This document shows, one piece after another, positions 4,876 to 50,664 of a stretch of 64,000 nt of DNA; positions within the stretch are counted from its first letter, which is position 1, and every line of letters begins with the position of its first letter. The stretch spans positions 12,123-76,122 of the forward strand of contig JAITPD010000033.1 in assembly GCA_031289615.1 (NCBI GenBank), given 5' to 3'. A program made the position numbers and the translations under genes. The stretch is from Lactobacillaceae bacterium (GTDB lineage: Bacteria; Bacillota; Bacilli; Lactobacillales; Lactobacillaceae). The notes beneath the pieces were generated by a model. The model did not search any database. It was not told the origin of the DNA and saw nothing but the letters and a program-made list of their open reading frames with translations.

Positions 4876-5252
4876 TTATACGTTAAAATAGGACTGATAA
4901 ACAAAAAAATAAGTAAATTAACCTAGCAAGATCAAGTAGCGAAATTAAAAATAATATTTGAATATAGATTACACTAAACAATTAAAACTAAGGTGCTTTT
5001 TAGAATTTAGAAAATCACGGCATATTTGAAAAAAATTAGTTTGATGAATTAATGCATCAAAAGATTAAATTAAAAAATAAGCTTGGTACATTGGATGCCG
5101 TTAGAATAGGTGCTAAGACCAAATACCAAGATTTCACTTGATGAATTTTTAAATTAAATTTAGTACGATGTTCAAAGGACTAATTTTAAGGATTGTATTG
5201 CTATTTAATACAACATATACTGTTATTAGTTCAAAAGAATGGGGAGAATAAA

Positions 5253-38208: not shown

Positions 38209-41004
38209 ATGAAAATCAAAGATACATTGAACATCGGGAAGACTAAATTCCCAATGCGTGGAAATTTGCCCACGACTGAACTTCAACGTGAAAACGTGTG
38301 GTTTGAAAATAAAGTTTATGAGGCACGCCAAAAGTTAAATGAAGGTAAGCCAACGTTTATGTTGCATGATGGACCTCCATACGCCAACGGGAATATTCAT
38401 ATCGGACACGCAATGAATAAAATCTCTAAAGATATTATCGTGCGTTATAAGTCGATGAATGGATTCCGCGCGCCATACGTTCCTGGTTGGGATACGCATG
38501 GTTTACCAATCGAGCAACAGTTGACAAAGAAGGGTAAGGATCGCAAGACGGTTGGTCCTGTGATCTGGCGCAAGATGGCCGAAGAATTCGCACGTAAGCA
38601 AGTCAAGACGCAAATGGCTGACTTTAAGCGTTTGGGTGTTTCAGCAGATTGGGATCATCCTTATTTAACTTTGTTGCCAGAATTTGAAGCAGCACAAATC
38701 CGCGTCTTTAAAGAGATGGCGAACAAGGGTTACATTTACAAGGGTAAGAAGCCAGTCTTTTGGTCATGGTCTTCTGAATCAGCTTTGGCAATGTCAGAGA
38801 TTGAATACCATGATGTGACTTCGCCCACTGCTTTTTATGCCGAGCAAGTTAAAGATGGCAAGGGAAAGGTTGATTCTGACACGTATTTCGTAGTTTGGAC
38901 GACGACTCCTTGGACGATTCCTGGTTCGCGTGGAATCTCTGTTAATGCAAACTTCAAGTATTCACAAGTACAACCAGCTGACTCAGATAAAAAGTATTTG
39001 ATTGCGACTGAATTGTTGGCAAAAGATGCTGAGATGTTTGGCTGGGACGAATATGAAATCTTAAATGAATTTACTGGGCAAGAGCTTGAATACATGACAG
39101 CGCAACACCCATTTTATGATGATGTTGAATTGCTCGTGATGTTAGCTGATTTCGTAACGTTGGATGCCGGAACTGGGTTGGTTCACACGGCACCAGGCTT
39201 TGGTGAAGATGACTTCTTTGTTGGTCAGAAATATGGTATTGAAGTTGCGGTGCCAGTTGATTATCAAGGAAAGATGTTGCCAGAAGCTGGGGCTGACTTT
39301 GATGGATTGTTCTATGAAGATGCAAACGCTGTGGCTTTGGATAAGTTGGCTAAGCAAGGAGCATTGTTGAAGCAAGAAGACATTACCCACTCATATCCAT
39401 TTGACTGGCGGACGAAGAAGCCGGTGATTTATCGGGCAGTTCCGCAATGGTTTGCTTCAATTGAACCTTTCCGTGAGACATTGCTAAATGAGTTGGATCA
39501 AGTGACTTTTTCTCCTGAATGGGGTAAGAAGCGTTTGTACAATATGCTAAAGGACCGTGGCGACTGGGTCATTTCTCGTCAACGGGTCTGGGGTGTGCCA
39601 TTGCCAATTTTTTATGCTGAAGATGGAACGGCGATTTTGGAAGAAGAGACAATCGAACACGTTGCGCAGTTGTTTGCTGTGCATGGTTCGACGTATTGGT
39701 TTGAAAAAGAAGCTAAGGATCTTTTGCCAGAAGGTTATACAAATGAGCATTCGCCAAATGGAATCTTCACCAAAGAAACTGACATCATGGACGTCTGGTT
39801 TGATTCAGGAACTTCACATCAAGGAGTCATGGCAGCTCGTCCTGACTTGGAATTCCCAGCAGATTTGTATCTGGAAGGTTCAGACCAATATCGTGGATGG
39901 TTTAATTCATCATTGATTACTTCTGTCGCTGCGACAGGTCATGCGCCGTACAAGAGTATCCTTTCACAAGGGTTCACGTTGGACGGTAACGGCGAGAAGA
40001 TGTCAAAATCAATTGGAAACACGATTGAGCCTAATGAAGTCGTTAAGGAGATGGGGGCTGAAATTATTCGTTTGTGGGTAACTTCGGTTGATTCTTCACA
40101 AGATGTGCGGGTCTCAATGGATTTGTTGAAGCAAACTTCTGAAACTTACCGCAAGATTCGCAACACGATGCGCTTCTTGTTGGCCAATACGGCAGACTTT
40201 AATCCAGCTGAGGATGCAGTTGCTTATGCTGATTTGACGCCGGTTGATCAATATTTCTACGCGCTCTTTAATGAGTTGGTTAAGACTTTGAAGGCGAGCT
40301 ATGATCGTTATGATTTCCAAGCGGTGAACAAGGCAGTGATTAACTTTATCAACGTGGATTTGTCAGCGTTCTACCTTGATTTCAACAAGGATGTCTTGTA
40401 TGTCGAGGCGCCAAAGGGTCACTTGCGACGTTCAGCACAAACGGTTTTGTACAAGATTTTGGTGGACTTGAATAAGCTCTTGTTGCCAATTTTGCCTCAT
40501 ACGGCCGAAGAAGTCTTTGAGTATTTGCCAGCTAAAGATGGTGACTTTGCTTACTTGACTGAAATGGCGCAGGTTGAAGACTTGGGTGACACGACCACGT
40601 TGCTTGCAAATTGGACTAAGTTTATGGACGTCCGTGATGCGGTCAATAAGGCTTTGGAAGTGGCGCGTAATGAAGAGTTGATTGGTAAGCCGGCCGAAGC
40701 AGCGGTGACGTTGTATTTGACTGACGAACAAGCTACTTTGATTGATGCGCTTGATCAAGATGTGCGTGTAACATTGTTGGTTTCACAGTTGGCATTGAAG
40801 AATGTGGCTGAGGCTGACGGACAAGTTCCAGAATATGATGGATATAAGATTCTGGTGCAACATGCAGCTGGTGAAATGTCGCCACGGGATCGCATGTATC
40901 ACACGGATTTGGGTGCTGATGCTGATTTCCCAGAATTGTCAGCACATGAAGCAGAAATCATTCGTGAAAACTTCCCTGAGGCCTTGACTGAGGGATTAGA
41001 ATAA
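38209..41004 (+). CDS. ileS: Isoleucine--tRNA ligase
   Basis: ATG 38209. HIGH motif ([16 protein letters not shown]), KMSKS ([10 protein letters not shown]) and a CP1 editing domain. About 930 aa. Confidence 0.95.
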
Positions 41005-41015
41005 AAAAATTTAAG

Positions 41016-41054
41016 GCAGATTCTCTTGATTGGTTGAGGGGATCTGCTTTTTTA
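41016..41054 (+). terminator. ileS rho-independent terminator
   Basis: GCAGATTCTCTT/GAGGGGATCTGC stem (with G-U pairs) followed by T6 (41048-41053). Confidence 0.7.
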
Positions 41055-41070
41055 TCGCTTGCAAAATGGA

Positions 41071-41121
41071 TTTATCGCTCGTTTTATCGCTCAAAAAACG
41101 AGCGATAAAGTGAGCGATAAA
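41071..41121. repeat. 22-bp-arm inverted repeat built from TTTATCGCT 9-mers (a fifth 9-mer lies at 41051-41059)
   Basis: TTTATCGCT occurs at 41051, 41071 and 41083 (+). AGCGATAAA occurs at 41101 and 41113. The arms TTTATCGCTCGTTTTATCGCTC / GAGCGATAAAGTGAGCGATAAA pair at 20 of 22 positions around the loop AAAAAAC. Confidence 0.9.
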
Positions 41122-41252
41122 TTTCTTTGCTAGATGTGGATGCTCATATAAGGATACTTCCAGAGCGAGGACCTCACAATCTTGTGAAAAAAATGATAAA
41201 ATGAATAAAAGCATCGCAAAATATTGCGTTCTTTTTGAGGAGGAATAAAATC

Positions 41253-41342
41253 ATGAGCAACGAGCAACGAGCAACGAGCAACGAGCAACGAGCAACGAGC
41301 AACGAGCAACGAGCAACGAGCAACGAGCAACGAATAATCTAA
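41253..41342 (+). CDS. Candidate 29-aa leader mini-ORF, M(SNEQRAT)3SNEQRII*, made almost entirely of the 7-nt repeat
   Basis: A strong SD GAGGAGG (41237-41243) sits 9 nt before ATG 41253. The frame is open through the repeat to TAA 41340-41342. Whether it is translated is inference. Confidence 0.4.
   Translation: MSNEQRATSNEQRATSNEQRATSNEQRII
41256..41332. repeat. Perfect heptanucleotide microsatellite, (AGCAACG) x 11
   Basis: 77 nt of uninterrupted 7-nt periodicity, counted by hand. It ends 81 nt upstream of the Type ISP start codon. Confidence 0.97.
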
Positions 41343-41413
41343 CTACCAATACATATTTGGTAGCTAGTGATATTTTAGCTACCAGTGTTACCGCAGAAAG
41401 TGCGGTGGCATAA

Positions 41414-44400
41414 ATGACTACTTTTAATGAATTAATTCATCAAATTAATGATACTGCTGGGGATGTTCAACGCGAACGTGGAACATTGTTTGAAAAACTC
41501 GTAGTCGCTTATTTAAAAAATGAGCCCACCTACAAGAATCTGTACACAGATGTTTGGATGCTAAGCGAGGTTCCTGCAGAATATGGAATTCCAAACAAAG
41601 ATACGGGTGTTGACATCGTTGCTCGCCAAAAGAATGGGGAGCTAACAGCTGTTCAAGCGAAGTTTTATGACCACAAAGTTGGTAAGGATCAAATTAATTC
41701 TTATGTGGCAGAACTTGGGAAGCATTACTATCAAAGTGGGATGATAGTTTCAACGGTTGACGATTGGAATAGCAATGCCCTTGAGACGATTAAAGATAAT
41801 GAAAAAAATATTGAAATAATTGGGTTGTCTGACTTACGAAATTCTCAAATTGATTGGTCGCAATTTACTTTTGAGCGGCCAGAACATGTCGTGGTAAAAA
41901 CTCACAAAACATTGCATGGCTATCAAGAAATAGCGTTGCAGAATGCACTTAAGCATTTTGAAGAACATGATCGCGGACAGTTAATCATGGCGCCGGGAAC
42001 TGGTAAAACTTTTACTAGTTTGAAAATCACAGAAGCATTGGCAAATAAAGCAGGTCGACAGTTTAAAGTATTGTATTTGGTTCCAAGTATTCAGTTGCTA
42101 AGTCAAACTTTGCGTGGTTGGAATAATGATACTGAGTTAACCATCACAAGCATGGCTGTTACATCAGATCGTGATGCATCACGTAATAACGATAATACAG
42201 AAGATATTAAGGGATCTGATATTGGGTACCCAGCGACGACTTCGACTCCCAAGTTGCTAGAGAATTGGGCTGATATTCAAAAGCAGAGCAAGCAGGATGA
42301 GCTGTTTGTTGTTTTTAGTACGTATCAAAGTATTGATGTAATTGGAAAAGCGCAGAAGCAAGGGTTCCCAGAGTTTGATTTCATTATTGCGGATGAAGCG
42401 CACCGAACAACTGGTGCTCATGAATCAAATCGCGAAGATAGTGCGTTTTCAAAAGTGCATGACAATGCGAACGTTCAAGGTGCTAAGCGGATGTACCAAA
42501 CAGCAACGCCAAAGATTTACGGTGAATCTGCTAAGAAAACCGCTAAAGAGAAGAGTATTCTGGTTTCTTCGATGGATGACGAAAGCAAGTATGGTGAAGT
42601 TTTTTATCGGATGGGGTTCGGGCAAGCGGTTTCTCATAACATTTTGACGGACTACAAAGTCATGGTGTTGGCCGTGGATGAGGCTGCGATTCAAAAAGAT
42701 ATGCAACGGACACTTGCTGATCCAGAAAACGGACTGAACATAGATGATGTTGGCCGAATTGTTGGGATTTGGAACGGGATGATGCGCCGAAATGGGTACA
42801 AAAATCCTGTTAAAAATAGTGCCTATGACGGAGCTCCTCTGGAACGCGCAATTGCCTTTACCCGGACAATTGCTGATTCAAAAAAAGTTTCGGATCAGTT
42901 CGTCAATGTTGTTAATGAATATTTGGGTGGAGACGAGGCGGAAGAACATGTTTCATTGGCGATGCGTCACGCTGATGGAACCATGAATGCTTTGCAAAAA
43001 GGTGAAATATTAGATTGGCTAGCTGACCCAAACAAGCCAGATGATGAAGCGCGAATTGTTTCAAATGTGCGTTTCCTAACTGAAGGAATTGATGTACCAA
43101 CTTTGGATGCGGTTATTTTCTTAGCGCCTAAAAAGTCTCAAGTCGATATTGTGCAAGCAGTTGGCCGAATCATGCGTAAGGCGCCAGACAAAGAATATGG
43201 CTATATTATTTTGCCGATTGTAATTCCGACTGACGAAACACCGGAATCAATTTTGGATAATAATAAAAATTATGAAGCGGTGTGGCAGGTCATCAATGCT
43301 TTGCGTTCAGTCGATGAACGTTTTGAAGCGATGATTGATAAGATTAATATCGCTAAGCCAAAGCAGTTAAAGGTGATTGGAATTGGTGGTGCGCCGAGTG
43401 AAATTAATGATCATGAAGGTACAGTTGGAGCTGGTGAAGAACCTAATAACGTGCAAACAGAGCTAAACCTTGAATGGGATAAGTTTGAGGGAGCTATTTA
43501 CGGAAAGATTGTTGAAAAGGTTGGCGACCGGAAGTATCTCGAAAATTGGTCGAAGGATGTTGCTAAGATTGCACAGCGTCAGATTGATTGGATTAAGACG
43601 AAGCTAACGGATAAGACAGACCCAATATCAGTTGAGTTCAAGAAGTTCGTGGCGTCATTGAAGCACAACATCAACGAAAGTATTGATGAGAATCAGGCAG
43701 CTGAAATGTTGTCACAGCATTTGATCACGAAACCAGTTTTTGAGGCACTGTTTGATGAGTATAGTTTTGTGAATAATAACCCAGTTTCTCAAGCAATGGA
43801 AACGATTATCGTAGAGCTTGAAAAGGCTGGCTTTGCGAAGGAACAAGAAAATCTGGAACCGTTGTATGAATCGGTGCGGATGCGAGCAGAAGGGGTTGAA
43901 AAGTCAGCGGATAAGCAAAAGATCATTGTGACCCTGTATGATAAGTTCTTTAGTACGGCCTTTAAGGAGACGACTGAACGGCTTGGAATTGTCTTTACGC
44001 CGGTTGAAGTGGTTGATTTCATTGTGCATTCAGTTGATGATGTCTTGAAGGAACACTTTGGTAAGTCTTTGGCGAGCGAAGGTGTGCACATTTTGGATCC
44101 GTTTACTGGAACGGGAACTTTTATCACGCGGACGTTGACTTATTTGAAGGAACAAATGGATGCCGGTGAGATTACCTTGGCGGATATTACGCGCAAGTAT
44201 TCGCAAGAGCTCCATGCCAATGAGATTGTGCTGTTGTCGTACTATATTGCGGCAATTAACATTGAGTCGACTTTTGATGAAATTTATGATGCTGATAATA
44301 CGACGTACTTCCCGTTTGAAGGAATTGTGTTGACGGATACGTTTGAGAGTACAGAAAATGAGGATACTTTGGATGATGCTTATTTTGGTACCAATGATGA

Positions 44401-46123
44401 ACGCTTGAAGCGCCAGCAGGAAGTGCCAATTACGGCGATTATTGGTAATCCACCGTATTCAAAGATAAAATCTTCAGCTAATGACTTCACGAGTATTCAA
44501 AATTACCCAATTTTAGATTTTAAAATTCAAAAAACATATGCAAAATATACAAATGCTAATTTAAAAAATTCGCTACAAGATTCGTATATAAGAGCAATAA
44601 GATGGAGTACCGATCGTATTGGTGATACTGGAGTGATTGCATTTATAACTAATAACGGGTATTTAGATTCCCCATCTTTGAATGGGGTTCGTAGAGTGTT
44701 GACAAAAGAATTTAATCACATTTATATTGTTGACCTCAAAGGTGCAGCTCGTGGTCTTAGTTCTGAATCTATAAAAAAACAAGGCAAAAATGTTTTTGAT
44801 ATTATGACTGGAGTAGCAGTAGTTGTGTTAGTCAAAGATGGTTCAGATAAACATATTGTTAATTACCATGATATAGGTGATGGCCTATCAAAAAAAGATA
44901 AATTTAACAGTTTATCTAGTAGTGATATTAGCAGTTTATCATTTAATAGAGTTATTTTAGACGAGAATGGTGATTGGATAAATCAAAGAGATAAAAACTA
45001 TGATATGTATTACTCATTAGGTGGTGAAGATAATAGCATTTTCCAAAATAAATTAGTAGGATTTAATACCAATAGAGATTTTTGGGCATTTAATTTTTCT
45101 GAATCAAATTTATCAGAAAACATTAAAAGAATGGTTAATAATTATAATTCAGAAATTAGTAGATTAGACAGCATAAATGAAACTCATGATAAGATAAACA
45201 ATTTAAATAATGATGAATCATTTATTTCATGGTCTCGTGGGTTGAAAAGAAAGTATGTTAAAGGTGAGCAATTATTCTTTAATGAAGGTAGCATTATGCT
45301 TACTCAAGCAAGACCCTTTACTAAAAAATATGTTTATTATGATAGAAATTTAGTTGAAATGCCGGGAAAATTTGATTCCGTTTTAGAAGATAACGGATTG
45401 TTGTTGTATACACCAGGTCCTGGAGGATCAAAAACATTTTCAGCATTAATTGCTAGAGGTCCTATAAATTTACAAGGATTTGGATTTGCTTCTAAAACAC
45501 AAACTTATCCTATTAAAATTAAAGGCTCAGGGTTAGTCGGTACAAGTGCTTATAATGTTACAGATTCAGCAAAGCAATATTTTGGATTACCAGATGAAAA
45601 TTTAATCTATTATTCGTATGCCGTTATGCATTCGTTGGAGTATGTTAACAAATATGAAGATGAATTATATAAAATAGTACCAAGGATTCCATTATTAAAA
45701 GATAAAGAAAAGTACGTTGAAATTGGTCGCCAACTTGCTGGCTTACATCTGAACTACGAAAATCAACCAAGGTGGGCTGGAGTTCAAGTGGAAATTACAG
45801 GTAGTGAGCCAAATTATCGTGTGAAGAAGATGAAACACCCTAAAAAAGGTGTACTGGATACGATTGTTTACAATGACAGCATCACTATAAAAAATATTCC
45901 GGAGTCAGCCTATGATTATGTCGTTAATGGACGTCCGGCGATTGAGTGGATTATTGATCAGTATCAAATCAAGACGGATAAAAAATCAGGTATAACTGAC
46001 GATCCAAATGAATTCAGCGATGATCCAAAGTATATTTTAAATCTGTTGCTGTCCGTGATCACGGTAAGTATGGAAACTAATGAGTTGGTTAGTCAGTTGC
46101 CAGAGTTTGAGGTGATAGAATGA
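41414..46123 (+). CDS. Type ISP restriction-modification enzyme (single polypeptide: Mrr-like nuclease, SF2 translocase, N6-adenine methyltransferase, target-recognition domain); LlaGI/LlaBIII-like
   Basis: PD-(D/E)xK core DTGVDIVA...AVQAK (~41603-41662). Walker A APGTGKT (~41989-42012). DEAH (42392-42403). TAT. VQAVGRIMR. SAM motif LDPFTGTGTF (~44093-44122). NPPY (44447-44458). Conserved C-terminal tail (..VVNGRPAIEWIIDQYQ..). 1569 aa. Confidence 0.85.
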   Translation: MTTFNELIHQINDTAGDVQRERGTLFEKLVVAYLKNEPTYKNLYTDVWMLSEVPAEYGIPNKDTGVDIVARQKNGELTAVQAKFYDHKVGKDQINSYVAELGKHYYQSGMIVSTVDDWNSNALETIKDNEKNIEIIGLSDLRNSQIDWSQFTFERPEHVVVKTHKTLHGYQEIALQNALKHFEEHDRGQLIMAPGTGKTFTSLKITEALANKAGRQFKVLYLVPSIQLLSQTLRGWNNDTELTITSMAVTSDRDASRNNDNTEDIKGSDIGYPATTSTPKLLENWADIQKQSKQDELFVVFSTYQSIDVIGKAQKQGFPEFDFIIADEAHRTTGAHESNREDSAFSKVHDNANVQGAKRMYQTATPKIYGESAKKTAKEKSILVSSMDDESKYGEVFYRMGFGQAVSHNILTDYKVMVLAVDEAAIQKDMQRTLADPENGLNIDDVGRIVGIWNGMMRRNGYKNPVKNSAYDGAPLERAIAFTRTIADSKKVSDQFVNVVNEYLGGDEAEEHVSLAMRHADGTMNALQKGEILDWLADPNKPDDEARIVSNVRFLTEGIDVPTLDAVIFLAPKKSQVDIVQAVGRIMRKAPDKEYGYIILPIVIPTDETPESILDNNKNYEAVWQVINALRSVDERFEAMIDKINIAKPKQLKVIGIGGAPSEINDHEGTVGAGEEPNNVQTELNLEWDKFEGAIYGKIVEKVGDRKYLENWSKDVAKIAQRQIDWIKTKLTDKTDPISVEFKKFVASLKHNINESIDENQAAEMLSQHLITKPVFEALFDEYSFVNNNPVSQAMETIIVELEKAGFAKEQENLEPLYESVRMRAEGVEKSADKQKIIVTLYDKFFSTAFKETTERLGIVFTPVEVVDFIVHSVDDVLKEHFGKSLASEGVHILDPFTGTGTFITRTLTYLKEQMDAGEITLADITRKYSQELHANEIVLLSYYIAAINIESTFDEIYDADNTTYFPFEGIVLTDTFESTENEDTLDDAYFGTNDERLKRQQEVPITAIIGNPPYSKIKSSANDFTSIQNYPILDFKIQKTYAKYTNANLKNSLQDSYIRAIRWSTDRIGDTGVIAFITNNGYLDSPSLNGVRRVLTKEFNHIYIVDLKGAARGLSSESIKKQGKNVFDIMTGVAVVVLVKDGSDKHIVNYHDIGDGLSKKDKFNSLSSSDISSLSFNRVILDENGDWINQRDKNYDMYYSLGGEDNSIFQNKLVGFNTNRDFWAFNFSESNLSENIKRMVNNYNSEISRLDSINETHDKINNLNNDESFISWSRGLKRKYVKGEQLFFNEGSIMLTQARPFTKKYVYYDRNLVEMPGKFDSVLEDNGLLLYTPGPGGSKTFSALIARGPINLQGFGFASKTQTYPIKIKGSGLVGTSAYNVTDSAKQYFGLPDENLIYYSYAVMHSLEYVNKYEDELYKIVPRIPLLKDKEKYVEIGRQLAGLHLNYENQPRWAGVQVEITGSEPNYRVKKMKHPKKGVLDTIVYNDSITIKNIPESAYDYVVNGRPAIEWIIDQYQIKTDKKSGITDDPNEFSDDPKYILNLLLSVITVSMETNELVSQLPEFEVIE

Positions 46124-48996
46124 AGGAACATCAAGATAAATTAAGAGCCTTATCTGCCAATGATAACCTAGCCGGTGAACATTATGATAAATATAAAAGG
46201 TATTTAGATGATGCCCTTAGTGAAGATAATCAAAGAAAAATCAAAAACATTGCCATAACTGGAAAATACGGGAGTGGCAAGTCCTCAATTATTGACACAT
46301 ATTTTAAAGATAATGATGCTTACCTGCGTGTTAGTTTTGCGACGTTTGATAGTGATGAAAAGTCTAAGGGAATTAATAACAAAGAATCTAATAATAGTGA
46401 GTCTGATAAAGTTATAAAGAATGATGGCGGGCCAAATATTTTTGCAAATATTATTAATCAGATAATTTATCAGTTGGATGTTAATAAAATACCTTTAACA
46501 AAGTTTAAGGTGAAGAAGCCACTTTCTAAAGATACTAAAGTTGGGTTGATAATTGAGTTGGCTTTAATATCAACGTTATTCGTTCATTTTGGTTTGGGAA
46601 TGTCAAAGTACGTCATAAGTATTCGACTTATCATAATTTTTGCATTAGGTTTAGCGATAGTATGGAAAGCCTTATCAAAATTTGAAATCAATCGTTTAAA
46701 ACTATCTTTTAAACTAGTTGACACTGAAATTGATATGGGAAGGGATGATTTATTTGAACGGTACACTGATGAAATAATTTATCTCTTTGAAAACTCTGGT
46801 AAATCAATTTTAATTATTGAAGATCTTGATAGGTTTAATGACTTAAAGATTTTCGAAAAATTACGTGAGTTAAATACAAAACTCAACTATACCAGTAAAA
46901 CAAATTGGCGCTTCATATATTTGATTAAAGATGATTTATTTGTAAATAAAAATGATCGAGTTAAGTTTTTTGATGAAATCATCCCAGTAATTCCGTTTAT
47001 AACCTCCAATAATTCGTTTGATAAATTACGTGATCTATTTGAAGGAGATGGCATTGATATAAAACTGCTGAGGATTTTGGGTGTCTATATAGATGATTTT
47101 AGAATTTTGCTCAATATAAGCAATGAGTACAAAGTATATTTTGGTGCAGCAGAGAATCAAAATAAAAATGAATTACTCGCATTAATTGCATATAAAAACT
47201 TGTTTCCAACTGAATTCGATGATTTACAGAACGGTAAAGGAAAGCTTGCAAAAATTGTTAATGAAAGTAATCAGAATATAAGAGATCAGATTCAAAAATT
47301 GAATGAGCAACGTGAAGAACTAAAACTAAAAAAAGAGACGGTAGCTGCCACGAATGAAGTTGAATTTTTAACTCTTTGGTCGATGAATAATGGTTTAGAT
47401 TTTTATCAGTCTGGGCGAGGTGGTTACAATAATGTACCCAATTTGAGTATCTCCAATATTGCACATGCAAAGCAAGTAATAGAGCAAGATCTTCAAATAG
47501 GAAGTCTTAACCAACAAAATGCACCAAAATATTCAGAATACAAGCAAGCTAATGCTGATTATGCTGATGGACTTGCAGTTGTGACATCATTTGATGGGCA
47601 TATTGTGGAAATTTCAAACAAGATCGAACAATTATCTGAGCTAAAGTTAAAGGACGTTGATCGTAACGCGATTGAGGGGGAATTTAGCGATATATTGTTT
47701 GCTTTAATTAAGTATGGGTTTATTACCGGGGATTATTTAAACGTTATTAACCATTATTATGGTGATCAAAATAATCTAGTATTTATGAAAAGAATTTTTG
47801 CAGGCCTTGAGAAGGATAAGTTTGACTTGAAAATCACTGATTTGGCTGGGCTGAATGAAAATTTGGATGACACAGATTTTGATAAGAATGAAATATTAAA
47901 TTTTGACTTGTTTAATTGGTTGTATTCAACTAACAATGACAAAAGGCTTACTCAGATGATTAAAACTGCTAATCATGGTGAGAATACTTTTATTGAAGAA
48001 GCAATTAATCTAAATCCCGAATTATTTGATGCAGTATTAAAGGTGCTTCCAAATATTCACTTTGATTTAACTAAATTACTTGAAATTAATGTGAATAAGA
48101 TTATTTTGGAAAATCTGTATGATGATACCAAATCAAATGGAAACATACTCGTTGGCTGGATTTCTAACTGGAATCAAGGACAGTACATTGAACTACTGAA
48201 CAACGAAACTGTCTATGGACACTTAAAAAAAGCTGTAATTGAAAATCTATTAAATAAATTGGAATTGAATCAAGTGTCTCACAAAGACTTATGGACTAAT
48301 ATTTTGCATAATCATAAGGCAATTGTTGATGAAAATAATGTAATTATATATTTTGACGAATTTGGGATTGATATAAACCTAATCAATTTTATTAATGAGG
48401 ATAATATTGAATTTAAAGGTAATTTATCACAAGAATTTTTTGATGATGTAATTGCTGTTAATGAAATCAACGATGATAAATTTAGTGAGATATGGGCATC
48501 CTATCAATTTGATAAAAAGTATTCAGTTGAAGATATTATGGATCAAGAAATAAACAAGTTGAGTCTATTGTTATCGTATGGAGTGTTAACAATGACACAA
48601 CAGATGATTGAATATATTGTGAGTCAAAAAATTGAATTACCCAAAATATATAATAACCATAATTTCAAAAATTTTGTTCTGGAAAATAAAATTAAGTTAA
48701 ATGATATTTTAGTTAAAGATTTATTGAAGCAAGATGATGAATATAATGAACAAATCTTCATGCGATCAATTCCAGCATTAACGAAATCAACAATGATTGA
48801 TTATGTTGAAAAAAATATTTTATTTGATGGCAAGATATTAAAAATTATGAATCATCACAGAGGGGCTCAAAACTTAAAAGTTGATGAAACAGAAATGTCA
48901 ATAAAACTATTTAAATGGATGCAAGAAAATGGATACATTGAAAGTTATGATGTTTTGCAGGGCAAAATGAAACCGAATTTTAAGAAGAAAAATTAA
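46120..48996 (+). CDS. KAP/YobI-type P-loop NTPase with two TM helices inserted in the NTPase domain (Tmn-like), plus a long unassigned C-terminal region
   Basis: ATGA start/stop overlap with the ISP gene, and SD GAGGTGA at 46109-46115. Walker A GKYGSGKSS (~46261-46288). Hydrophobic helices at ~46540-46680. Walker B ILIIEDLDRF (~46807-46836). KFFDEIIPVIPF segment. Confidence 0.7.
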   Translation: MKEHQDKLRALSANDNLAGEHYDKYKRYLDDALSEDNQRKIKNIAITGKYGSGKSSIIDTYFKDNDAYLRVSFATFDSDEKSKGINNKESNNSESDKVIKNDGGPNIFANIINQIIYQLDVNKIPLTKFKVKKPLSKDTKVGLIIELALISTLFVHFGLGMSKYVISIRLIIIFALGLAIVWKALSKFEINRLKLSFKLVDTEIDMGRDDLFERYTDEIIYLFENSGKSILIIEDLDRFNDLKIFEKLRELNTKLNYTSKTNWRFIYLIKDDLFVNKNDRVKFFDEIIPVIPFITSNNSFDKLRDLFEGDGIDIKLLRILGVYIDDFRILLNISNEYKVYFGAAENQNKNELLALIAYKNLFPTEFDDLQNGKGKLAKIVNESNQNIRDQIQKLNEQREELKLKKETVAATNEVEFLTLWSMNNGLDFYQSGRGGYNNVPNLSISNIAHAKQVIEQDLQIGSLNQQNAPKYSEYKQANADYADGLAVVTSFDGHIVEISNKIEQLSELKLKDVDRNAIEGEFSDILFALIKYGFITGDYLNVINHYYGDQNNLVFMKRIFAGLEKDKFDLKITDLAGLNENLDDTDFDKNEILNFDLFNWLYSTNNDKRLTQMIKTANHGENTFIEEAINLNPELFDAVLKVLPNIHFDLTKLLEINVNKIILENLYDDTKSNGNILVGWISNWNQGQYIELLNNETVYGHLKKAVIENLLNKLELNQVSHKDLWTNILHNHKAIVDENNVIIYFDEFGIDINLINFINEDNIEFKGNLSQEFFDDVIAVNEINDDKFSEIWASYQFDKKYSVEDIMDQEINKLSLLLSYGVLTMTQQMIEYIVSQKIELPKIYNNHNFKNFVLENKIKLNDILVKDLLKQDDEYNEQIFMRSIPALTKSTMIDYVEKNILFDGKILKIMNHHRGAQNLKVDETEMSIKLFKWMQENGYIESYDVLQGKMKPNFKKKN

Positions 48997-49011
48997 TATG
49001 TGCAGTCCTAG

Positions 49012-49060
49012 TTAAACTTTTGAATTGGGTTGGTATATTTTACATGAAAAGTTTAATTTT
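49012..49060 (+). terminator. Weak candidate terminator after the NTPase gene
   Basis: Perfect 10-bp but AT-rich arms TTAAACTTTT/AAAAGTTTAA (49012-49021/49047-49056), a 25-nt loop, then T4. Confidence 0.3.
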
Positions 49061-49224
49061 AGTTCGGAATTATCGTATATACGGTTAAAACTGGTGGAAT
49101 AATTTTGTAAAAAATTTTGTTAAAACAAAAGCTATTAGGTGATGATGGACGTTAAACGTTTATATAACAGCCTAAATATTCAGCATATTAAACTCAAATA
49201 ATGAAATGAAAGAAGGCATTGAAA

Positions 49225-49659
49225 ATGATTAGACAGAAGGTAACGTATAGCGATTTAAACGCCAAGCAACAGGAGCTTTTTAACTTTACGAAGCTTGCGA
49301 GTGCATTGATTGATTACAATCTGGTTGCCATAAAATTAGATGATGATTATCTTGGTGCTGATTTTTTGATTTATGACGCTGATAACGATGGTAAAACAAT
49401 TAAGGTTCAACTTAAGGGGAGAATTAATGTTGAGTCTAAGTACATTGGTAAAAATTTGTATATGGCATTTCCTTTAGAAACGCATGGGGATGAGTGGGTA
49501 ATTATTGACCATGATAAGTTGGCCGAATTGTGGATGACAGGGAATGAGTCTAAAAGTTGGAACCACGGTCAAGGCGGATATTCAGCGAAGTCAGTACCTA
49601 AACAGATTATGGCACAAGTAATTGATATGAGTCTGTATGGTATTTTGAAAATTCACTAA
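49225..49659 (+). CDS. Small hypothetical protein with a PD-(D/E)xK-like signature
   Basis: ATG 49225 behind AGAAGG. GADFLIYDADNDGKTIKVQLKGR gives a D...(x)n...QxK spacing like the nuclease core of the ISP N-terminus (D..VQAK). No other motif seen. Confidence 0.35.
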   Translation: MIRQKVTYSDLNAKQQELFNFTKLASALIDYNLVAIKLDDDYLGADFLIYDADNDGKTIKVQLKGRINVESKYIGKNLYMAFPLETHGDEWVIIDHDKLAELWMTGNESKSWNHGQGGYSAKSVPKQIMAQVIDMSLYGILKIH

Positions 49660-49746
49660 TTCGTTAATGCAAGTGTTCAAGCTTTATTCACCCCACCTCA
49701 CCCATTCAGGCGTACAATATATGTATACAAAGTGAGGTAAAAAATT

Positions 49747-50040
49747 ATGGGCTTTTTCAAACAATTTCTATCAGGTTTAGGCGATACGACCGTGAGCGGT
49801 GATGACAATTTTGCATCGTTCTCTGATGGTACGACGGCGAACAAGGTAGGCGACACCACGTTTTATTCTGATGGGACAAGCAAGACGACGATTGGTGACA
49901 CGGAATTTTTGAGCAACGGTGTCACTGGTAACAAGATTGGCGATACGACATTTTACTCGGACGGAACTACCAAAACCGAGATTGGCGGGTCAACGTTCAT
50001 GTCCGGGGACGGTGCGGACGATGACGCCAAGATGTGGTAA
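49747..50040 (+). CDS. 97-aa Gly/Asp/Thr-rich protein made of four ~15-aa tandem repeats (GDTTFYSDGTxKTxI)
   Basis: GTGAGGT RBS. The repeats are visible in the translation. No signal peptide or TM helix. A strong terminator follows. Confidence 0.4.
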   Translation: MGFFKQFLSGLGDTTVSGDDNFASFSDGTTANKVGDTTFYSDGTSKTTIGDTEFLSNGVTGNKIGDTTFYSDGTTKTEIGGSTFMSGDGADDDAKMW

Positions 50041-50050
50041 ATAAGATGAG

Positions 50051-50083
50051 AAATCCACTGGCTGCGGCGGGTGGATTTTTTTA
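50051..50083 (+). terminator. Rho-independent terminator
   Basis: AAATCCAC/GTGGATTT stem with a GC-rich loop, then T7. Confidence 0.7.
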
Positions 50084-50197
50084 TAAAGATGATCTGGTTG
50101 AGGTGCCGCTATAGCCAGGAATTAAAAAAATTCAAATTGGATAAAATATGTATATCACGGTACAATAATGGTAATAAATTTGTTTTGGAGGGACAAC

Positions 50198-50392
50198 ATG
50201 ACAACACAAGATAAATTAGAAAAAATTAATGCCGTACAAGACGAACTGCGTGAAATGTATTATGCAGGTGATTTTGGTGAATTGTTGCGTTCTGGTATAT
50301 CTCAGGACATGATTGATTTTTTACTACAACTAAAAGATTATTATCGGGCAATTGATCAAAAGAAAATCATTGATGGACCGTTTGTAATATAA
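50198..50392 (+). CDS. Hypothetical 64-aa helical protein
   Basis: ATG 50198 behind GGAGGG with 8-nt spacing. A TTGGAT-N18-TACAAT promoter-like pair lies at ~50137-50166. No motif recognised. Confidence 0.35.
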   Translation: MTTQDKLEKINAVQDELREMYYAGDFGELLRSGISQDMIDFLLQLKDYYRAIDQKKIIDGPFVI

Positions 50393-50441
50393 TTTCGAAA
50401 TCAAGTATCCCCAAAACATCTAAATTCCCTCACCACAAACC

Positions 50442-50490
50442 AAAGCTTAGGCCCCGCGCTCGTCGCAGGATTTCCTAAGCTTTTTCTTTT
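50442..50490 (+). terminator. Probable terminator at the island's right edge
   Basis: AAAGCTTAGG/CCTAAGCTTT 10-bp arms with a 22-nt GC-rich loop, then TTTTTCTTTT. Confidence 0.55.
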
Positions 50491-50664
50491 AGTAAGCTTA
50501 ATAAAATGGGCATAATTGTCTGTTAAAATGGAATAACGAACTAGAAATAGCTCGATTTAAAACTGAAATACTCACTTTAAATACGCATAAACAGTCCGGG
50601 TGTCACAGGCGGAAAAGCTTGTGATAGCAACGTTTTGGAGCGTAATTAATTTTCTTAAGAAACG

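Follow-up and report, generated by a model that had tools for sequence, protein, structure and literature searches.

A 64,000-nt stretch of a Lactobacillaceae metagenome-assembled genome (MAG; GenBank assembly GCA_031289615.1, contig JAITPD010000033.1, positions 12,123 to 76,122 of the forward strand), referred to here as the window, carries an intact gene for a Type ISP restriction-modification (R-M) enzyme, and a small open reading frame (ORF) enclosing a perfect heptanucleotide repeat lies directly upstream of it. What does a repeat of this kind do in front of a complete restriction enzyme? We consider it likely that the locus is a phase-variable translational-coupling switch of a defence operon, consisting of the Type ISP gene and a nucleoside triphosphatase (NTPase) gene, and that it was sequenced in the OFF state. 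The original prediction, made from the letters of the sequence, had proposed that slippage of the repeat toggles the coupling between the leader and the enzyme gene. Homologous cassettes with varying tracts and frames in Enterococcus cecorum now support this proposal, whereas for the window locus itself we infer it.

A repeat that sets the exit frame of a leader ORF

The two genes and the elements of the leader, all on the forward strand, are as follows.

41237-41243: leader Shine-Dalgarno (SD) sequence GAGGAGG, 9 nt 5′ of the leader ATG
41253-41255: leader start codon ATG (located by sequence and script)
41256-41332: (AGCAACG)x11, perfect heptanucleotide repeat, predicted slippage-prone element
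41253-41342: leader mini-ORF with 11 units, M(SNEQRAT)3SNEQRII, ending at TAA 41340-41342; predicted OFF frame
41333-41342: two-frame stop trap AATAATCTAA, with TAA 41335 and TAA 41340
41333-41413: exit frame when the number of units (n) is a multiple of three, 26 codons NNLTTNTYLVASDILATSVTAESAVA followed by TAA
41414-46123: Type ISP R-M enzyme, 1569 amino acids (aa), intact (Pfam, structure matches, motifs)
46120-48996: YobI-like or Tmn-like P-loop NTPase, 958 aa (PF20693, 6.9e-89; PADLOC Tmn, 5.9e-46)

The Type ISP protein shows the Pfam domains Mrr_cat_2, ResIII, ISP_coupler, N6_Mtase and Type_ISP_C in this order, matches the structures of LlaBIII (4xqk) and LlaGI (5ffj) over its full length with E = 0, and is 70% identical to LlaGI (P0112). 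The motifs GTGKT, DEAH, DPFTGTG and NPPY are present, and the Mrr-like nuclease, superfamily 2 (SF2) ATPase, coupler, N6-adenine methylase and target-recognition domains that characterize the class are joined in one polypeptide. Because the gene is intact and retains all catalytic motifs, some route to its expression is to be expected.

Tandem Repeats Finder (TRF) reported the array at 41255-41333 with a period of 7, 11.3 copies, 100% matches and a score of 158, and it was the only tandem repeat of more than about three copies in the window. A long, perfect tandem repeat with a unit length that is not a multiple of three is characteristic of repeat-tract contingency loci. No sense frame of the AGCAACG unit has a stop codon, and all three are read as SNEQRAT; in silico, the number of units therefore determines whether the leader ends early or continues as far as the gene start. 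With 10 units the leader stops at TAA 41335-41337 and with 11 units at TAA 41340-41342, so that the closed exit frames terminate 3 and 8 nt past the tract, whereas with 6, 9, 12, 15 or 18 units the leader extends for 26 codons to TAA 41411-41413. The positions originally given for the leader SD, the ATG and the 11 units all held when the sequence was re-examined with TRF and a script, and the script likewise reproduced the stops predicted for 10, 11 and 12 units and the TAAATG junction with the enzyme gene. An open exit frame of 26 codons was reached by a fraction of 0.11 of dinucleotide shuffles. The caution attached to the original prediction, that such a frame is not rare by chance, is thus justified for this sequence taken alone (P ~0.11), but it loses force in view of the three diverged cassettes described below, all of which keep the frame open.

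The leader start appears to be well made. The GAGGAGG heptamer occurs once in the window when both strands are counted, 10 of the 13 forward-strand sites with GGAGG placed 5-10 nt before an ATG mark ORFs of at least 64 aa (several of them called gene starts), and the leader ribosome-binding site (RBS) forms a duplex of -11.5 kcal/mol with the anti-SD sequence at an opening cost of just 2.8 kcal/mol, which makes it structurally open. For these reasons, initiation at ATG 41253 looks real as far as sequence features can indicate.

The copy number of 11 rests on a single MAG assembly, and we therefore considered whether metagenome assembly had created the tract or altered its length, in which case the frame argument would be moot. 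Short-read assemblers can collapse or expand tandem repeats, and in the only independent assembly, the Logan k=31 contigs of run SRR14710898, the two relevant contigs (L154 and L001) both end inside the tract, from opposite sides. These contigs confirm no more than a length above 31 nt for the tract. Exact-protein look-ups with the Type ISP enzyme, the NTPase, FabZ and IleS returned only contigs of the same run, broken in the tract, and look-ups with IleS and DivIVA taken from their first ATG gave no match. The artefact explanation is nevertheless very improbable, because the two contigs enter from both flanks with the same unit, so that at least 5 units are real, because a tract of 77 nt can be spanned by ordinary reads, and because homologous tracts occur in assemblies of E. 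cecorum isolates, one of them a 2.39-Mb record. Only the exact count of 11 is truly at risk.

Hairpins over the Type ISP ribosome-binding site

Between the stop trap and the enzyme gene, folding revealed two adjacent hairpins, the second of which lies over the translation signals of the Type ISP gene (all on the forward strand).

41358-41384: hairpin A, 10 bp, -12.9 kcal/mol
41385-41411: hairpin B, 11 bp, -15.8 kcal/mol, covering the whole Type ISP SD and reaching the T of the leader stop
41404-41408: Type ISP SD GGTGG, in the 3′ arm of hairpin B
41411-41416: TAAATG junction, at which the read-through leader stop abuts the Type ISP start codon ATG 41414

The minimum free energy of the 108-nt leader segment was -31.5 kcal/mol, compared with -17.3 ± 3.1 kcal/mol for shuffled sequences (z = -4.6), and none of 200 shuffles was as stable; hairpins A and B jointly account for -29.8 kcal/mol. 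Both hairpins had been noticed in the original prediction, in shorter forms. The one at 41359-41383 was described with 8 bp and proved to have 10, whereas the other, described as a 6-bp hairpin that partly buries the SD, has 11 bp and covers the SD entirely. The accompanying view that the SD of the Type ISP gene is weak had to be abandoned. Its duplex with the anti-SD sequence reaches -13.1 kcal/mol, a value equalled or exceeded at just 7 of 54 ORF starts, and the site is instead wholly sequestered: its opening cost of 15.1 kcal/mol ranks first among the 54 ORF starts in the window.

In classical translational coupling by unmasking of an RBS, the downstream start is occluded or depends on translation of the upstream ORF. 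At the window locus, the downstream RBS is sequestered in hairpin B within the read-through frame, and the upstream stop abuts the downstream start solely in the frame that results when the number of units is a multiple of three. The OFF stops lie 16-21 nt 5′ of hairpin A, whereas the ON frame traverses both hairpins. We propose that ribosomes would start at ATG 41253, aided by its strong and open SD, and translate a leader made up almost wholly of (AGCAACG)n. As 7 is not divisible by 3, replication slippage that adds or removes one unit would shift the exit frame. In two of the frames (n = 10, 11 etc.), ribosomes would meet a TAA 3-8 nt past the tract and hairpins A and B would stay folded; with hairpin B folded, the Type ISP SD would be buried and the operon silent or expressed at a very low level, which is the state predicted for the 11 units sequenced. 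In the third frame (n = 6, 9, 12, 15), the ribosome would melt both hairpins and terminate at TAA 41411 beside ATG 41414, and the Type ISP gene would then be translated by unmasking and reinitiation, followed by the NTPase gene through the ATGA overlap of the Type ISP stop and the NTPase start. This overlap, at 46120-46123, was confirmed as first described, and because of it the NTPase is probably switched together with the restriction enzyme.

The same anatomy could also support a real switch that acts on RNA, in which an early leader stop leads to Rho-type polarity, atypical attenuation or rapid decay and read-through protects the transcript. A similar layout of leader and hairpin in Streptococcus gallolyticus does act on transcription (PMC3894217), and the OFF frames would leave 71-76 nt of leader and the 4.7-kb gene free of ribosomes. 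We nevertheless regard an RNA-level switch as quite unlikely, since a T-run is missing after both hairpins, the forward strand showed no terminator-like site at 41340-41420, and the placement of hairpin B exactly over the SD with the stop at the start codon, which recurs in seven cassettes, is needed by coupling and not by attenuation. An Rfam search of 40900-41520 gave chance-level matches only.

Homologous cassettes in Enterococcus cecorum

When the protein database was searched with the hypothetical 12-unit leader peptide, the search returned small ORFs of E. cecorum that contain the SNEQRAT repeat, are 91, 84, 77, 53 and 41 aa long and differ in their endings. Two E. cecorum genomes, L159 with two cassettes and L160 with three, were fetched, and cassettes also occur in the E. 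cecorum-like metagenome contig L110.

L159, 5973-6276 and 10194-10473: E. cecorum cassettes
L160, 3380-3756, 7690-7998 and 9900-10250: E. cecorum cassettes
L110, 1-151 and 4950-5094: E. cecorum-like cassettes
L159, 5973-6002 and 6035-6063, and 10194-10223 and 10256-10284: promoter-like sites within the two cassettes

In each E. cecorum cassette, an SD (GGAGG) and an ATG precede the tract, an exit region and two hairpins; the leader stop shares 1 nt with the R-M start (TAATG), and the cassette terminates exactly at the ATG of its R-M gene. In all seven cassettes, the leader stop either adjoins the start codon or overlaps it. The three cassettes of L160 stand in one island beside a MobL gene, upstream of an N6_N4_Mtase gene with a ResIII helicase (Type III-like), of a MethyltransfD12 methylase with an NOV_C protein (Dam-like, Type II-like), and of N6_Mtase with Methylase_S (Type I-like). 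The tract unit is either AGCAACG or CAAT, whose length is also not a multiple of three, and the type of unit attached to a given gene varies between E. cecorum strains. The fetched genomes contain AGCAACG tracts of 16 and 12 units, and the lengths of leader peptides in the database point to others of 13 and 10 units, whereas CAAT tracts have 18, 23 and 35 units. The exit states vary as well: the leader reads through to the gene start in three E. cecorum cassettes and meets an early stop in two. As in the window, closed frames stop soon after the tract (2-10 nt past it) and one frame is open, here for 30-32 codons.

The window leader is related to these cassettes at its 3′ end. In the final 29 nt before the start codon, 25 of 29 positions are identical (GTGTTACCGCAGAAAGTGCGGTGGCATAA in the window, GTGTTGCCACAGAAAGCGTGGTGGCATAA in E. 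cecorum), with an alignment score of 38 as against 14.1 ± 2.2 for shuffles, none of 500 of which scored as high. The four differences include a compensatory change from a G-C to an A-U pair and a change from A-U to G-U, both in hairpin B. The stop traps are similar (AATAATCTAA in the window and ATAATATAA in E. cecorum), the leader C-termini are alike (...TAESAVA* and ...CVATESVVA*, respectively), and at the position of hairpin A the E. cecorum cassettes also have a hairpin, of different sequence. The likeness stops exactly at the ATG, beyond which the coding sequences belong to unrelated genes. The 5′ halves, by contrast with the 3′ ends, are not similar (alignment score of 14 against a shuffle mean of 17.7): the E. 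cecorum leader has 23 codons ahead of the tract and an N-terminus reading MQEV...GIDK, and the window has a short leader start of its own. Thus, the 3′ module, described by the pattern GTGTTRCCRCAGAAAGYGYGGTGGCATAA and comprising the tract, the stop trap, the open frame, the SD-burying hairpin B and the stop at the start codon, is present in the window, and the 5′ module is absent. Three diverged versions of the cassette (Weissella, to which the host of the window is related, the E. cecorum 7-mer and E. cecorum CAAT) each keep the frame open for 26-32 codons, an outcome that had P = 0.08-0.11 for each version when assessed by shuffling.

The E. cecorum cassettes further contain a pair of promoter-like sites close to consensus, of which TTGAAA-18-TATAAT overlies the first leader ATG and TTGACA-17-TATAAT ends at the tract; in the CAAT-type copy, the second site has TACAAT. 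In the window, the following site was called on the forward strand.

41173-41202: promoter-like site CTCACA-18-TAAAAT with a TG extension (TGATAAAAT), consensus match only

It was the sole promoter-like site called on either strand in 40900-41500, and a transcript starting from it would carry the leader SD and ATG.

The closest relatives of the enzyme are 70-78% identical, and the named ones come mostly from lactic acid bacteria, many of them being plasmid-borne. Plasmid copies form a repB-orfX-Type ISP operon in which the stop of orfX and the start of the Type ISP gene overlap (TAATG or ATGA), an arrangement of ordinary translational coupling that speaks for coupling at the window locus as well; chromosomal relatives carry strong SDs of their own. 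A genome scan found a repeat tract within 400 nt 5′ of the start in none of 31 Type ISP relatives, so that the repeat leader does not characterize the Type ISP family. The possibility that the 26-codon exit frame is homologous to the 3′ end of plasmid orfX was rejected, because the two share only a GGTGGCA heptamer, in another frame. As a separate observation, the orfX product ends in ...KKWWHFGRRM* in plasmid-type LlaGI-like loci (L002-L007, L129, L131, L132, L134, L145, L151 and L152).

The isolation of the window locus among Type ISP genes (0 of 31) would suit a relic, that is, a cassette that came with the Type ISP gene or recombined onto it and persists as a neutral microsatellite, the operon being either weakly constitutive through breathing of hairpin B or silent. 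The lack of the conserved E. cecorum 5′ half, the predicted OFF frame of the sequenced state and the unexceptional probability of a single 26-codon open frame (P ~0.11) would fit the same explanation. We consider it unlikely, because 11 units without one substitution argue for ongoing turnover, because the strong SD and the ATG set before the tract are preserved, as are the stop trap, hairpin B and the TAA-ATG junction, and because the 4.7-kb and 2.9-kb ORFs downstream are intact as well.

A number of other observations weigh against a coupling switch at this locus, and the absence of the tract from the 31 relatives counts among them. The covariation in hairpin B amounts to one compensatory pair in two lineages, and 71 of 500 shuffles score as high. 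Only one MAG and one Sequence Read Archive (SRA) run contain the locus, and the k=31 contigs of the run break in the tract. In E. cecorum, a second conserved ATG lies in another frame, and the two alternative leader starts could set which class of unit numbers is ON. A weak promoter-like sequence found by eye in the window, TTGCGT-16-TAAAAT (41224-41251, 8/12 matches), ends 1 nt 5′ of the leader ATG, at the position that corresponds to the perfect TTGACA-17-TATAAT of the E. cecorum cassettes; if it were the sole promoter, transcripts would be without the leader ATG and the leader would be untranslatable. Finally, switching a restriction enzyme ON over an unmethylated chromosome risks self-cleavage. 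With these points taken into account, the translational-coupling switch remains the explanation that we favor for the window locus.

Considering the cassettes together, we lean towards the view that they represent an undescribed family of portable switches, which would move between genera (Enterococcus and Weissella) and between R-M classes (Type I-like, Dam-like, Type III-like and Type ISP) and make downstream defence genes phase-variable with the coding sequence unaltered. Since the shared module ends at the start codon in every cassette found, it could be pasted onto any gene.

Three further searches concerned the distribution of the cassette. BLAST of the leader region against plasmids, using both the window sequence and an E. 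cecorum cassette, gave no match. When 1.84 billion representatives were searched with the E. cecorum leader peptide by HMMER, low-complexity repeat matches dominated the output, which was set aside; its full-length match was solely to the E. cecorum representative. A scan of viral contigs for the hairpin-B motif found two related ones (L164, 1503-1522, and L165, 9896-9915, minus strand), in which a gene end reading ...LKTESAVA* (GACAGAAAGCGYGGTGGCATAA) abuts the next start codon. These were not retained as support, because only the 3′ arm of hairpin B matches and about 0.4 chance hits are expected by a rough estimate; the match could be due to chance, or could hint at the origin of the 3′ end of the cassette.

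Relation to known switches and genomic setting

Heptanucleotide repeats and tracts upstream of genes are both familiar from other systems. NeuO of Escherichia coli K1 is described as phase-variable through heptanucleotide repeats, the ON state being confined to repeat numbers divisible by three; its unit has 7 nt as in the window, but the tract lies inside the gene. At the hmw loci of Haemophilus influenzae, a 7-bp tract upstream of the gene modulates the level of expression in a graded manner; it resembles the window tract in unit length and position but acts with neither a leader ORF nor frame switching. A heptanucleotide unit, CAGCGAC, is also known in a mod gene of Shiga toxin-producing E. 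coli (STEC). Among R-M genes, slippage of repeat tracts switches Type I hsdM/hsdS, Type III mod and the Type IIG gene Cj0031 (PMC5909438, PMC7383803, PMC4889913). In these phase-variable R-M systems, the tract forms part of the coding sequence and truncation of the protein is the result, whereas the window tract lies in a separate upstream ORF and leaves the enzyme untouched. In Streptococcus suis, GAGCA tracts have been reported upstream of mod genes to which they are not fused (PMC6265453); they may reflect the same logic as the leader cassette.

The closest precedent is provided by the pil1 and pil3 loci of S. gallolyticus, another member of the Lactobacillales, in which a leader peptide with GCAGA repeats governs the access of ribosomes to a downstream terminator hairpin (Danne et al. 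2014, PMC3894217). There, too, a leader ORF with its own RBS and ATG encloses a repeat whose unit is not a multiple of three, the leader stop of the OFF frame lies tens of nucleotides before a strong stem-loop, and in the other frames ribosomes enter or cross the stem-loop and the operon is ON. The window locus has the same parts: an RBS and ATG opening a leader ORF that encloses the whole tract, and a strong stem-loop between leader stop and gene with the OFF stop well upstream. It lacks the intrinsic terminator of pil1, as there is no T-run 3′ of either hairpin and no terminator-like site in the region scanned. The pil1 and pil3 loci combine a GCAGA unit with a terminator that has a T-run, transcription attenuation and pilus cargo, whereas the window combines a 7-nt unit with a second, SD-masking hairpin, a stop at the start codon and a restriction enzyme as cargo. 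Since the T-run is missing and a hairpin covers the SD, the locus would work like the pil1 switch by a mechanism that is not identical. The ON classes would also differ: pil1 and pil3 are ON after one repeat is added or deleted (21 or 23 units), whereas the window locus is predicted to be ON in one of three frames.

In view of pil1 and pil3, the earlier suggestion that a repeat switch in a leader ORF was undescribed does not stand in general form. Our literature searches found no paper linking a Type ISP enzyme to repeat-driven switching. The searchable literature yielded no description of the E. cecorum cassettes. Two repeat surveys made no mention of E. cecorum, the Type I survey mentioned neither upstream tracts nor Weissella, and a 2025 review of phase variation mentioned neither leader peptides nor coupling.

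The E. cecorum cassettes thus remain the nearest relatives of the window leader, sharing the AGCAACG unit, the stop trap, hairpin B with the SD, the leader stop at the start codon and the ...ESxVA* ending. They differ in having a longer leader with an unrelated 5′ half, internal promoter-like sites and, in some copies, CAAT units, and in their cargo, which consists not of a Type ISP gene but of Type III-like, Dam-like or Type I-like genes located on an element with MobL. Ordinary coupling, including that of the plasmid repB-orfX-Type ISP operons, resembles the window in that stop and start codons abut or overlap (TAAATG in the window, TAATG or ATGA in the plasmid operons); it is fixed, however, whereas the coupling proposed here would depend on a hypermutable tract. 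With respect to the risk of self-cleavage, paired sites in opposite orientation are required by Type ISP enzymes. Type III enzymes, for which phase variation is known in many bacteria, also have asymmetric sites, modify one strand only and depend on the recognition of two sites at once (PMC12707154). Coupling between the C gene and the restriction endonuclease gene has also been mentioned for R-M systems (PMC12707154).

If the proposed switch is real, the enzyme of the window would be the first phase-variable Type ISP enzyme, and repeat-driven phase variation would extend to this class and to Lactobacillaceae that are used or occur in food fermentations, for which phage resistance is of practical importance. 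Phage resistance and gene flow are shaped by phase-variable R-M systems, as are entire regulons ("phasevarions") by way of methylation, and these systems have been catalogued from repeats within the R-M genes. Because a switch that lies wholly upstream and acts by unmasking an RBS would escape surveys of repeats inside genes, a class of phase-variable methylases and restriction enzymes of Gram-positive bacteria would have been overlooked by them. One island of E. cecorum, an emerging poultry pathogen, would harbor up to three methylase systems that switch independently.

The IleS protein of the window is 87% identical to that of Weissella diestrammenae, and the host is an uncultured relative of Weissella. 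In W. diestrammenae, fabZ follows ileS after 300 nt, and the approximately 9.6 kb between the two genes in the window therefore represent an inserted island. The island (~41050-50650) contains the Type ISP gene, the NTPase gene and three small ORFs of 144, 97 and 74 aa, and is absent from W. diestrammenae. None of the three small ORFs had a significant Pfam match, the 97-aa ORF giving a below-cutoff hit to DUF2963. In the fetched relatives, of which the 25 genome loci alone continue beyond the end of the Type ISP gene, no YobI-like partner adjoined it, so that the pairing of a Type ISP gene with this NTPase appears specific to the island. The contig of a sister MAG stops ~100 nt past ileS. Between the end of ileS and the island promoter, the segment at 41051-41122 contains three direct copies of TTTATCGCT and two inverted copies of AGCGATAAA and forms a hairpin with 23-nt arms (-30.6 kcal/mol), which could be an insulating terminator, an operator or the end of an element.

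Arrays of the same unit were also found elsewhere. (AGCAACG)n with n of at least 4 occurred in at least 120 metagenome contigs (L008-L127), sampled from soil, freshwater and the sea, and degenerate units often flanked the array; among the matches listed, nearly all came from unrelated, mostly GC-rich organisms, L110 alone was relevant, and none was the window locus. A tally of the ORF context of these arrays proved uninformative, because the unit is open in all frames. Several of the arrays run straight into an SD-like motif and an ATG, and heptanucleotide arrays near gene starts look widespread. At L161-L163 (~5001-5246), a small ORF next to a group II intron reverse transcriptase and a CI-like repressor contains another AGCAACG tract. 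Its alleles in the database (P0261, P0264 and P0248) differ in their exits, and the tract is thus length-variable in a non-R-M context.

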